Shown: piece after piece, positions 2,795 to 54,465 of the stretch | Layout of the letters: every line of letters begins with the position of its first letter | How positions within the stretch are numbered: the first letter of the stretch is position 1 | From: Chthonomonadaceae bacterium | GTDB lineage: Bacteria; Armatimonadota; Chthonomonadetes; Chthonomonadales; Chthonomonadaceae | Direction: 5' to 3' | Assembly: GCA_035650735.1 (NCBI GenBank) | Contig: DASRGZ010000019.1 | Coordinates: 1 to 55,198 of the forward strand | DNA length: 55,198 nt | Notes under the pieces: generated by a model | Databases searched by the model: none | Told to the model about the DNA's origin: nothing | Seen by the model: only the letters and a program-made list of their open reading frames with translations | Program-made: the position numbers and the translations under genes

Positions 2795-3130
2795 CAAGAT
2801 TCCAACCGGATGCACAGGATTACTCAGGATTTACAGGATGAAGACACAAGACAGAAGCCTACCAGCTCAGTTGGCTTCTGCTCTCCCTTCTGCCTTGCAG
2901 GGAGAAGGGCCGGGGAGGAGGGGAGATAAAAGAGAACGGAAGTACCTGGCAGTGAAGACCCCTCCCCTCTCCTTCAGAAGGCAGTACGTTGCCTCGGAGT
3001 CTCCCGCCGTCAAGGGCGCGTGAAGACCCCTCCCCTCTCCTTCAGGAGGAGAGGGGCCGAGGGTGAGGCTTGAAGTCAGCAAGAACAGGGCTCGGTTGGT
3101 TGGGTTTTAGGAATCTTGTTCATCCTGTTG
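2795..3130. repeat. Composite intergenic repeat: ~9-nt CAGGAT-type tandem arms enclosing family A palindromes
   Basis: CAGGATTACTCAGGATTTACAGGATG near 2814-2840 is complementary to ATCTTGTTCATCCTGTT near 3113-3129. The interior holds CCCCTCTCC..GGAGAGGGG..GGGTGAGG units. Confidence 0.7.
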
Positions 3131-38421: not shown

Positions 38422-38511
38422 GTGCACCCCACGCAGGGAGGGCTGATATGGTGATGGCGCCGCTCCACAACCTCTGGCTCCAGTGCACCCCACGTAGGGA
38501 GGGCTGATATG
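38422..38511 (+). CRISPR. Single-spacer mini-array with divergent type I-E-like repeats
   Basis: GTGCACCCCACG(C/T)AGGGAGGGCTGATATG at 38422-38450 and 38483-38511 (29 nt, one mismatch), separated by a 32-nt spacer. Confidence 0.65.
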
Positions 38512-51297: not shown

Positions 51298-51604
51298 TAG
51301 GTTCTAAGGTGCTAAGGGTTAGTGGTGCCTCCGGTAAGTCTGCCGTCCTTTGTGCGGCAGGCTAAACCCTGCCGCTGTGGGGCCTACTGCCAGGGTCGGG
51401 CCTGCCATGGTTGGGCCCCCTGCCTTGCGAGGTCCTTGCCTCCGCCTAGCCACACCTGGCCACAGCCCTCCGCCTGGCGAGGCCCTCCGCCCACCTACGT
51501 CGGCGGGAAAAGGCACTGCCAGGAAAGTATAGGGAACTTGGTGGATGCACCAGTTAGTGCCAGAACCTTAAGAACCCTTAGCACCCTCTAGCACCCTAGC
51601 CCTT
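51298..51604. repeat. Three-level nested element: TAGGGTTCT/TAGGGTGCT tandem arms > family C (51323-51552) > family B (51386-51480)
   Basis: Outer arms TAGGTTCTAAGGTGCTAAGGG versus AGAACCTTAAGAACCCTTAGCACCCTCTAGCACCCTAG. Family C ends TGGTGCCTCC / GGATGCACCA. Confidence 0.85.
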
Positions 51605-51957: not shown

Positions 51958-52030
51958 GGGGCTGTAGCTCAGCTGGGAGAGCGCTTCAATGGCATTGAAG
52001 AAGTCAGGAGTTCGAATCTCCTCAGCTCCA
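51958..52030 (+). tRNA. tRNA-Ala (GGC), CCA not encoded
   Basis: GGGGCTG/CAGCTCC acceptor stem with G3:U70, anticodon arm CTTCA-ATGGCAT-TGAAG, and GTTCGAATC T-loop. Confidence 0.97.
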
Positions 52031-52153
52031 CTCCTCCCCAACCGAGCCGGCGCGCACGGATAGGGCGCCGCTTCAGGGGGGCTGTCTGGCGGATTTGCCG
52101 CGCGCGGCTGCGTTCTTGCACGTTCGCGTAACCAGGTTGGGTAAAGGTTTGCC

Positions 52154-53095
52154 ATGCACATAGCCAACACCTATCGCGTCCGAGGGAACCGACTCGTGCG
52201 CGATATTGCCGCATTGCTGGGAGCCGCGGTCTCCTCTTGGATGCCGTGGGGTTCCCTCCAGCCTGACTCCTCCACGACTCTGAAACCCTTTTTGTTTAGA
52301 TATAGCGCTTGTTTGCGGTTGCTGCCTTCGCGGCGCGTCTGGTGCGGTCTCTGTCTCTGGGCCGCGCTGCTGGGCGGCTTAGGAATGCGGCCCGCCGGAG
52401 CCTCGCCCCCGGCGGCTTCACAGGCGGAGCGCCTCACACCGGTGGATGTGGGCGTGCTGGTCAACCCGATTGCAGCCGATAGCGCGCGCGTGGGCATCGC
52501 CTTTCATCAGCGCGTGCCCCACGCCCAGGTTCAGGCGGCGCTGGCGCGTCTGGCGCAGACGCCGGGCTGGACGCTCAGCCAGATCCAGATCGTGGACGAC
52601 CGCATTAACCGTGACCCGCTCACGACGACCGCCGCGTTTGTCGTGCAGAATGCGCCGCAGACGCTGGGCTCCGCGCCCAATCTCTGGCCTTATCTGCGCG
52701 CCTTCCAACGCTGGAACCGCGTCGAAGTGCTCTTTCTGGGCATGGATTTTCGTCCCTATACCGGCATAGAGCAGTGGGACCATCCGGCGCTCTCCGTGCG
52801 TCTGCTGCAACAGGGACAGGGGATCTATCGCTATCAGGCCGATATCCGTGACCATCAGAGGGCGCTGCCGGCGCTGCCGGTGGCCGCAGCCACGACCAAT
52901 GACGCTGTGGCGGGCCCGGAGGGCACGCCTGCCGAGACGGCCCGCGCTGGCAAGCGCGCGGACCTGGGCGCTTACTGGTCGGCCGTGTTGGTGTTGGCCG
53001 GTCTGGGATTGCTCTGCGGCGCGGCGGCCCTTCTCTGGGCGGCACGCCGCCCGGCCGTGCATCCCTCCGCCGGCAGCTTCGGCCCCAAGGTCTAG
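52154..53095 (+). CDS. Hypothetical exported protein with a C-terminal transmembrane anchor
   Basis: Signal-like segment (WCGLCLWAALLGGLG..AGA) and a C-terminal transmembrane helix followed by RR. The true start is probably downstream of 52154. Confidence 0.65.
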   Translation: MHIANTYRVRGNRLVRDIAALLGAAVSSWMPWGSLQPDSSTTLKPFLFRYSACLRLLPSRRVWCGLCLWAALLGGLGMRPAGASPPAASQAERLTPVDVGVLVNPIAADSARVGIAFHQRVPHAQVQAALARLAQTPGWTLSQIQIVDDRINRDPLTTTAAFVVQNAPQTLGSAPNLWPYLRAFQRWNRVEVLFLGMDFRPYTGIEQWDHPALSVRLLQQGQGIYRYQADIRDHQRALPALPVAAATTNDAVAGPEGTPAETARAGKRADLGAYWSAVLVLAGLGLLCGAAALLWAARRPAVHPSAGSFGPKV

Positions 53096-53100
53096 CCGTA

Positions 53101-53278
53101 TTAGGGTTCTGGGGTTCTAGAGAGTTCTGTAGGGTTCTAAGGGTGCTGGTTCCCCCGCGCGTGGGGAATAGGGCGCTCTCGGATTGCGGCAACCGTTCGT
53201 TGTTGCTGGTTCCCCCCGCGCGTGGGGAATAGCTCAGAATCTTAGAACCCTACAGAACCTTAGCACCCTAGCACCCTA
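53101..53278. repeat. TAGGGTTCT-type tandem inverted arms enclosing the mini-array
   Basis: TTAGGGTTCTGGGGTTCTAGAGAGTTCTGTAGGGTTCTAAGGGTGCT versus AGAATCTTAGAACCCTACAGAACCTTAGCACCCTAGCACCCTA. Confidence 0.85.
53144..53232 (-). CRISPR. Single-spacer mini-array with type I-E-like repeats
   Basis: Minus strand: CTATTCCCCACGCGCGGGGGGAACCAGCA (29 nt), a 32-nt spacer (53172-53203), then the same repeat lacking one G (28 nt). Confidence 0.7.
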
Positions 53279-53307
53279 CTATTCCCCGCAGGCGCGGGGG
53301 TGAACCG
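53279..53307 (+). CRISPR. Solitary canonical type I-E CRISPR repeat
   Basis: CTATTCCCCGCAGGCGCGGGGGTGAACCG: 29 nt, perfect CCCCGC/GCGGGG stem, 4-nt loop and GTGAACCG 8-nt tail. Confidence 0.75.
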
Positions 53308-53331
53308 CCCGGCTACGAAAGGAACTATGTA

Positions 53332-54465
53332 ATGAGTCTCGAACTTGATGATATGCTCCGATACGCGGCAGAGCGCCAGTCCTCTGACCTCTTTATCCGC
53401 GCCAACGCGATCCCCTCCATCCGCCTGCACGGGCGCGTGGTGCCCACCGATTTTCCCGTCATCTCCCCGGAGCAGGCCCATGCGCTGGCCTTCAGCAAGA
53501 TGTCCCCCCGCCAGCAGGCGATCTTTGAGCAGCATCATGAGATGGACCTGGCATTCACCGTCGGCGGCGTGACCCGCATCCGCATGAACGTCTATATGCA
53601 GCGCGGCACCGTCGGCTGCGCCTGCCGGCTGATCCCCCTGGAGATACGCAGTCTGGAGGACCTGGGCATCCCGCCCAAGGTCAAGGAGTTCGTCACGAAC
53701 CGCAACGGGCTGGTGCTGGTGACCGGGCCGACCGGATCGGGCAAGACGACGACGCTGGCGGCCATGATTGATGTGATCAACCAGACGCGCCCCGTGCATA
53801 TCGTCACCATCGAGGATCCCATTGAGTTCGTCCATGAGGATAAACAGGCCATCATCAGCCAGCGGGAAATCGGTATTGATACCGAGAGCTTCCAGATGGC
53901 GCTGCGCCACGTGCTGCGCCAGGCACCGGATATTATTCTGATCGGCGAGATGCGCGACATCGAGACTATGAACGTGGCGCTCCAGGCGGCGGAGACCGGC
54001 CACCTGGTCTTCGCAACAGTCCACACGGCCAGCGCGGCGGAGACCCTGGACCGTATCTCGAATATGTTTGCGCCCCACGAGCGCCCGATGCTCTGGCTGC
54101 GCCTGTCGGTGTCGCTGCGCGGCGTCATCTCTCAGAAGCTGCTGCCGCGCGCCGATGGCACGGGCCGCGTGGCCGCCGTAGAAGTCATGGATGTGACCCC
54201 GACCATCGCCAAGATGCTGGAGGAAGGCAAGTCCGACGACATCTATTCGGCCATCCGGCAAGCCGGACAGGAAGCTTACTGGGGTATGCAGACCATGAAC
54301 CAGTGCCTGCTCCGCTACTATAAAAGCGGGGTCATCACCGAGCAGGAGGCCCTCGCCAACGCGGGCAACTATTCGGAGATGAAGCAGATGATACGCATGG
54401 CCTCGCACCAGACCAGTCAGCAGCCCGTCGTCGGCCCCCAGATCCCGGGGCTGACCAATCGCTAA
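53332..54465 (+). CDS. pilT: Type IV pilus retraction ATPase (PilT/PilU family)
   Basis: SSDLFI, GPTGSGKTT, TIEDPIE, SQREIG, LRQAPDIILIGEMRD, AAETGHLVFATVH and GMQTMNQ motifs. Confidence 0.93.
   Translation: MSLELDDMLRYAAERQSSDLFIRANAIPSIRLHGRVVPTDFPVISPEQAHALAFSKMSPRQQAIFEQHHEMDLAFTVGGVTRIRMNVYMQRGTVGCACRLIPLEIRSLEDLGIPPKVKEFVTNRNGLVLVTGPTGSGKTTTLAAMIDVINQTRPVHIVTIEDPIEFVHEDKQAIISQREIGIDTESFQMALRHVLRQAPDIILIGEMRDIETMNVALQAAETGHLVFATVHTASAAETLDRISNMFAPHERPMLWLRLSVSLRGVISQKLLPRADGTGRVAAVEVMDVTPTIAKMLEEGKSDDIYSAIRQAGQEAYWGMQTMNQCLLRYYKSGVITEQEALANAGNYSEMKQMIRMASHQTSQQPVVGPQIPGLTNR

Follow-up and report, generated by a model that had tools for sequence, protein, structure and literature searches.

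Does a pair of short repeats ahead of a pilT-type gene work as a CRISPR unit, or does it record some other event? The pair (53144-53232, here called C19) lies on the minus strand of a 55,198-nt stretch of the genome (G000) of a Chthonomonadaceae soil bacterium, analysed at its full length and referred to as the window. A first-pass annotation of the letters had described it as a one-spacer mini-array, one of a genome-wide population of dispersed CRISPR units possibly carried by small palindromic elements. The locus was dissected, its repeat and arms were counted across G000 and compared with related genomes, and the sources and possible targets of its insert were sought.

The two copies (28 and 29 nt) are direct, their sole difference being a run of five rather than six G, and their start-to-start period is 61 nt. 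The DNA between them is unique; it counts as 32 nt when 29-nt matches are taken and as 33 nt in a 28+33 register. The first description of the pair, with its minus-strand repeats, 32-nt spacer and G5/G6 difference, was thereby confirmed. The copies occupy the loop of a palindrome (Table 1) whose arms are built of 8-9-nt units of the AG(A/C)ACCCT type and share an 18-nt perfect inverted match, and the same arm family encloses other DNA further upstream; the inverted arms and the other cargo were as annotated. Folded as plus-strand RNA, the locus gave z = -6.8, a value equalled by 0 of 200 shuffles. A third repeat, canonical for type I-E and absent from the earlier annotation, adjoins the right arm on the plus strand. 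The cargo of the other arm pair (51322-51552) is a mosaic of repeat pieces common in the genome, with 286 blast pieces of at least 40 nt, and has imperfect inverted ends. A tRNA-Ala (GGC) gene at 51958-52031 gave the only Rfam match across the window.

Table 1. Positions of the repeats, arms, scars and neighbouring genes in the window
Feature	Position	Strand	Remarks
Upstream ORF	52154..53095	+	No Pfam match; start at 52154 or 52442 uncertain; 3' part also upstream of pilT in G001
Left arm	53102..53145	+	Tandem 8-9-nt units, AGGGT(T/G)CT type; 7 nt past stop codon of upstream gene
Distal variant I-E repeat (G5)	53144..53171	-	Final bases run into arm
Unique insert	53172..53203	-	Neither source nor target found
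Proximal variant I-E repeat (G6)	53204..53232	-	Weaker hairpin and altered 3' end relative to canonical repeat
Right arm	53233..53278	+	Inverted partner of left arm; 18-nt perfect match; locus-specific letters mirrored
Canonical type I-E repeat	53279..53307	+	Sense to pilT, 24 nt ahead of its start
pilT-type ATPase gene (PF00437)	53332..54465	+	Downstream neighbour
Another arm pair	51298..51597		Encloses about 230 nt made of common repeat pieces of the genome
Second 28+33 scar	38422..38510	+	Tail of host palindromic repeat family duplicated around 33-nt insert
Third scar in window	2952..3049		Host DNA, 30-bp duplication around 38-nt insert

Contigs from two runs, X1 (a possible source of the assembly) and X5, cover the locus with 0 differing letters and 0 gaps at contig level, where rare variants would not show; the G5/G6 difference, for which a check of the reads had been suggested, is reproduced exactly in both. 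Among the joints listed for contigs of four runs, neither a spacer-skipping joint nor a single-repeat allele was found. The locus is identical in L066, which is probably from the same source, and a metagenome search with the upstream protein returned one locus with the sequence of the window. Repeat or arms were found in 0 of 79 regions upstream of other pilT genes, that of the sister species G001 among them; in G001 the gene order at pilT is the same and the whole element is missing. By the relatives of its pilT gene, the organism belongs to Chthonomonadaceae, Armatimonadota.

The repeat of the pair is a true type I-E repeat. Near-identical repeats form long arrays of 61-nt period in G034, G035, G039, G002 and G012, with cas6e present in the same genomes, and the arrays lie next to full I-E operons at the three relatives' loci that were translated. 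A degenerate form of the repeat matched 8 of 41 genomes, and in a pattern search G000 was the only one of 42 genomes of the family with many dispersed loci. Profile searches of G000 for Cas6e and Cas7e returned nothing, a weak result, since only 1 of 14 controls was positive with each profile. With the I-E Cas1 model the one match was the resident Cas1, far under the cut-off, and the relatives' I-E proteins matched only Cas3 and Cas1 of the C93 locus. At that locus (C93:2500-22500) an array with 80 copies of an unrelated 29-nt repeat lies next to cas genes, which, judged from their open reading frames, look like I-B plus III-A genes. The assembly is 97.6% complete in 224 contigs, and I-E cas genes could be hidden.

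A profile scan of G000 for the I-E repeat gave 36 matches, against 3 in the reversed genome. Six matches were left out of the count (five scoring 14-16, the level of the control, and one within a coding gene on C55), and indel variants of the repeat were added by eye. The final census holds 17 loci with 34 clear copies, 7 of the loci being single repeats and 10 having two to four, so that the suspected genome-wide population is real. A census by loose regular expression (58 matches, 101 in its control) was uninformative and was set aside. Eight of the 16 intervals between repeats measure 61 nt, two 62 nt and three 64-65 nt; the other three are odd (48, about 82 and 87 nt), arm DNA filling the last two. 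With 10 of 16 intervals at 61-62 nt, the variable spacing expected of REP doublets, which had been named as an alternative, is excluded.

All 17 loci are intergenic, and their neighbours are unrelated genes such as mutM, tatA, pspA, yceD and those for a PP2C phosphatase, an epimerase and a response regulator. No target duplication was seen by eye around the single repeats, and the idea that these are themselves captured spacers was left unsupported. The element was missing from G001 at pilT, mutM, the phosphatase gene and yceD, that is, at 4 of the 5 orthologous sites examined; the queries used for tatA and the C114 gene gave no match in G001. A single repeat is kept at the G001 site orthologous to C32 (69% protein identity), and the C32 repeat is taken to be old because it is common to both genomes. 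G001 also has a one-spacer unit of its own at C509, with a period of 62; L141 and L142 cover the single repeat and this unit. At C69:3855-3990 in G000, two I-E repeats precede a release-factor-like gene, and a 19-nt stretch between them is complementary to downstream sequence, giving a repeat-in-hairpin arrangement.

Arms were found at 27 loci in G000 (control 1), where empty palindromes with short loops are common. The proposal that palindromic elements act as carriers was upheld in so far as one core has been copied to three loci, and failed in that only 3 of the 17 repeat loci have arms and only 3 of the 27 arm loci have an I-E repeat (C19, C109 and C127). The composites at these three loci are one lineage, with an arm-plus-repeat core that appears to have been copied from place to place: C19 and C109 alone have an 18-nt repeat-arm junction in common, the inner repeats of arm-enclosed loci have a shortened stem in common, and C109 and C127 have the same first 19 nt after the upstream outer repeat. 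At C127 the order is repeat, left arm of 33-34 nt, repeat, right arm of 58 nt, repeat, which amounts to a three-repeat array with arms as spacers, and at C194, C191 and C119 the insert consists of arm DNA. Because of that layout and those inserts, capture of the arms as spacers, followed by lengthening through slippage, is favoured over the dropping of a repeat into a ready palindrome. Left and right arms of the same locus match best (18 nt at C19 and 22 nt at C109; other loci, 12-14 nt), as expected if arm pairs correct each other at C19 and C109. Exchange between arms is also likely to have inverted the C19 loop, the core being flipped relative to C109, to the outer repeat and to the genes. 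Small dispersed repeats nested in cyanobacterial tandem heptamers were reportedly described by Elhai in 2008; C19 is like them in that small repeats are nested.

The duplications themselves were then compared with products of CRISPR integration. Three identical 28-nt copies surround two 33-nt inserts at C109. The newer insert matches a small host ORF on C91 (33/33 with the G included) and is preceded there by AAG, its best register being one base off that of the neighbouring spacer. An AAG PAM with a PAM-derived G is given as the E. coli I-E signature in the available text of PMC7054753. The insert at C19 differs from both of those at C109. The C19 repeat is one C shorter, and both copies extend into the first arm bases, so the duplication came after the repeat was in the arms; when 28 nt are counted from the first repeat base, one arm base was therefore duplicated too. 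The duplicated DNA is an ectopic repeat plus 1-2 arm bases at C19, and host sequence at 38422 and at other scars.

Such scars are spread through G000. The period spectrum of duplicated 24-mers peaked at 61 (12 loci; neighbouring periods 4 and 4), at 66-68 and at 73. About 119 scars remained after copies were removed, each with a 27-40-bp duplication and a 31-40-nt insert: 10 near 28+33, 74 near 30+36-38 and 32 near 36-38+34-37. Five of 131 lay wholly inside a called gene. Four scars in non-CRISPR DNA were exactly 28+33 with 0 mismatches, and the 60-62 class (9 scars) was more similar to the I-E repeat than the 64-69 class (67 scars; p = 8e-4). The duplication of the 30-bp class is 1 bp longer than the resident 29-nt C93 repeat. 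Nine inserts have a unique source in the genome, and 4 of the 7 of these in the 30-bp class follow CCG. The unit at 38422 had been read as a different repeat in the same register. Its 28+33 geometry is indeed that of C19, but its 28-mer belongs to no CRISPR repeat family: it is the tail of a host repeat of which about 17 further copies, all single, lie elsewhere, and it is duplicated at 38422 only. The two units annotated as unrelated mini-arrays make better sense as a pair of integration scars with one geometry than as CRISPR units. Relatives had fewer scars than expected: G012 had 2 (one convincing) in 400 kb against 7.3 expected, and none was seen in 219 kb of G001 (4.0 expected) or in 328 kb of G034 (6.0 expected).

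Several individual scars were recorded. A clean 29+33 scar lies at L082:4979 in G012, a genome with a type I-E system. In G000, C224:43547-43710 is a three-copy array of non-canonical host sequence, and C198:74296-74500 has one scar nested in another, the two being of different length classes. C15, the source of 4 of the 9 traceable inserts, is possibly a mobile region or a break hot spot. Scars at C65:114, C106:32250 and C208:1910 and in the period-73 family were later copied within small repeated elements.

The pair at 53144-53232 is probably a type I-E Cas1-Cas2 integration scar, made in an ectopic repeat that lay within a copied composite of repeat and arms, and not a working unit. A type I-E Cas1-Cas2, unseen in the assembly, would have inserted a 33-nt fragment into a lone arm-flanked repeat, with 28 bp duplicated in place. 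The course proposed here draws on the three composite loci and on parsimony for the arrival of the repeats, their flanking by arms, the copying and the flip. Single I-E repeats would first have reached transcribed intergenic sites. One repeat would then have acquired arm DNA to its left and right, most likely through the capture of two spacers, a layout still intact at C127. Copies of the composite would next have arisen at three loci, and recombination between dispersed repeats is the likely route, because each composite abuts a canonical repeat. Different spacers would have been added in place afterwards, one at C19 and two at C109, and the inverted arms may then have flipped the C19 loop, leaving the pair antisense to pilT. 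Loss of the I-E cas genes would be the last step. If active at all today, the element is most likely an RNA hairpin ahead of pilT that yields no guide RNA, and the C19 locus by itself is probably inert.

Orientation is the observation that falls outside what the scar model accounts for. When genes were called with a home-made program and C19 was counted by its outer repeat, all 17 I-E loci were sense relative to their nearest gene (p = 8e-6); the inner pair at C19 is the one antisense exception. A second family of CRISPR-like single repeats, 37 nt long and ending in ATTGAAAC, often with AAAC runs following, has 20 matches in G000 (e.g. C33:3081, C76:215 and C112:9397), of which 18 are sense (p = 2e-4), bringing the two families together to 35 of 37. 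No array matching this 37-nt family was found in G000. Control repeat motifs were sense in 246 of 420, 9 of 17 and 187 of 351 cases (53-59%). The bias is what would be seen if the dispersed repeats were domesticated RNA elements, selected in leaders as processing or stabilising hairpins and in some cases as ribosome-binding sites, C19 being one such element with chance additions. The single repeat retained at the orthologous G001 site agrees with this, as do C32 and C105, where the G-rich repeat end falls at the position expected for a ribosome-binding site. Yet no Cas6e was found for cutting, the downstream genes are functionally unrelated, the repeats are drifting (2-6 changes) and are mostly missing from the G001 sites, and a smaller orientation control was also largely sense (10/13). 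The G001 unit at C509 runs opposite to its nearest gene. Moreover, selection of this kind concerns the outer repeat and not the antisense inner pair. Domestication is regarded as a doubtful account of the locus, though it is compatible with an integration scar and both can hold.

The arm-repeat-arm hairpin could instead be a REPIN-like miniature mobile element; a host transposase would move it, and by taking the repeat to further sites it would start new arrays. The recurrence of a single core at three loci, and its private 18-nt junction, would suit such an element, and the strict arm pattern, with 8 matches in G000 and 0 in 40 relatives, suggests that the arms spread recently. Y1 transposase genes are present in G000, and the centre of many empty arm pairs is a short loop that a repeat could replace. 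However, 14 of the 17 repeat loci are without arms, the canonical repeat next to every composite would be needless for a free mobile element, none of the three Y1 loci in G000 is flanked by repeat or arm units, and neither target duplication nor polymorphism was observed. The likeness to REPIN/RAYT systems as set out in the accessible part of PMC3116915 lies in the arms, which are intergenic inverted hairpins in many copies; the inner pair differs in being direct, with CRISPR geometry, and no transposase is flanked by these units. Movement as a mobile hairpin is considered unlikely.

A functional one-spacer CRISPR would use its antisense transcript as a guide RNA, for defence or to control a gene, with the I-E Cascade encoded on a mobile element or at a locus missing from the assembly. 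The repeat family and period are right, and mini-arrays occur in cas loci and phages (10.1101/2023.03.03.530964, as far as its text was available). No cognate I-E cas genes, promoter or target were found, however. No sigma-70-like promoter site was detected on either strand in 52900-53600, the leader position of the unit is taken by an arm, and the proximal copy forms a hairpin of -9.5 kcal/mol, weaker than that of the canonical repeat, with its 3' end altered. The best match of the spacer in the genome had 9 mismatches of 33. A 20-nt part of it had 0 exact matches in viral contigs (exact matching misses diverged targets), and the phage search gave 2 records (E 4) and the plasmid search 8 (best E 0.07), all at chance level. 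The longest PAM-plus-seed match to a promoter was 9 nt, and 51 of 60 shuffles gave one as long; the proposed search for targets, seed-only promoter matches included, thus yielded nothing above chance. The sister array at C109 targets its own genome perfectly with an intact PAM, which argues against active interference. G001, examined for a repeat in place of the PAM at a self-target, had intergenic DNA too diverged for the comparison. The unit is also not conserved among relatives. Regulatory mini-arrays (CreA, CreR and crRNA-like RNAs) resemble it in having two degenerate repeats and one spacer, but those treated in the part of 10.1101/2023.03.03.530964 that was available are conserved, match promoters and belong to cas loci or phages; none of this applies to the C19 unit, which sits between a host ORF and pilT. 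That it works as a guide is very improbable.

Fragmentation of the metagenome assembly and degeneracy of the repeats might point to the broken-up remnants of one array or to an assembly artefact, but the flanking genes keep their order (the same in G001 without the insert at pilT and yceD), no spacers common to different repeat loci were found and contigs of two runs reproduce the locus exactly, so that a single rearranged array, earlier named as an alternative, is excluded and this explanation as a whole can hardly be credited.

Why integration should have strayed from arrays in this genome may be connected with HU/IHF (PF00216), which was not found in G000 or in 39 of 40 relatives and was detected in 1 of 41 genomes of the order. 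Across the phylum it was found in 59 of 151 genomes, patchily by family, and in 9 of 14 controls. The text available from PMC13769266 reports that HU keeps a type III-A integrase from off-target integration in vitro, and that in the E. coli I-E system it is IHF that guides integration. The lack of HU/IHF likely permits off-array integration, yet is insufficient alone; because quiet relatives are also without HU/IHF, a further factor is needed in the lineage of G000, and the link between HU and the scars is weak. A wider interpretation, offered tentatively as possible rather than probable, is that CRISPR repeats now form a dispersed chromosomal element in this lineage without HU/IHF. Single repeats of two CRISPR types would be placed or kept sense in leaders, the integrases of CRISPR systems passing through would write into them, and the composite would copy itself and seed arrays; whole repeats would move in a transcription-oriented way.

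Off-target integration that creates neo-CRISPR arrays has been reported in E. coli over-producing Cas1-Cas2, with circumstantial evidence from two other species (Nivala, Shipman and Church 2018, as relayed in the accessible parts of 10.1101/148544, PMC11788318 and PMC7054753). G000 resembles those cases, as they are presented there, in its I-E-length duplications and 33-nt inserts off the canonical array at repeat-like sites; it differs in that the events are natural, fixed and genome-wide, with three length classes, and in that the target at C19 is an ectopic true repeat in a palindrome. For orphan arrays, the available portion of PMC13142298 gives mobile-element transfer, cas loss and off-target acquisition as routes and proposes a leader plus one repeat as the seed. 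The loci of G000 are like such orphan or isolated arrays in lying far from or without cas genes; unlike those covered there, they are 17 tiny loci inside core operons, have no leader, are nearly all sense and in three cases are fused to arms. Solitary repeat units and RNA anti-CRISPRs (SRU/Racr) are likewise single intergenic repeats, often in transcripts, but the survey in PMC10651486, in its accessible text, concerned viruses and plasmids, with repeats mostly matching the host system, whereas those of G000 precede chromosomal housekeeping genes and have no matching system. A full-text search of open-access main texts (the SRU and mini-array supplements could list chromosomal cases) turned up no account of sense-oriented single repeats spread over a chromosome, nor any of repeat-palindrome composites.

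The C19 locus is real; the interest lies in the repeat population more than in this locus alone. Whether off-array integration is a natural source of new CRISPR arrays is left open in the text available of 10.1101/148544. G000 displays every stage, with single repeats, one-spacer units, units of two to three spacers, more than 100 scars in ordinary DNA and a PAM-verified self spacer, and it offers a route to testing which host factors hold Cas1-Cas2 on target. If the reading of the repeats as a dispersed chromosomal element is true, G000 would document how arrays are born in nature, from the lone repeat to the multi-spacer array.
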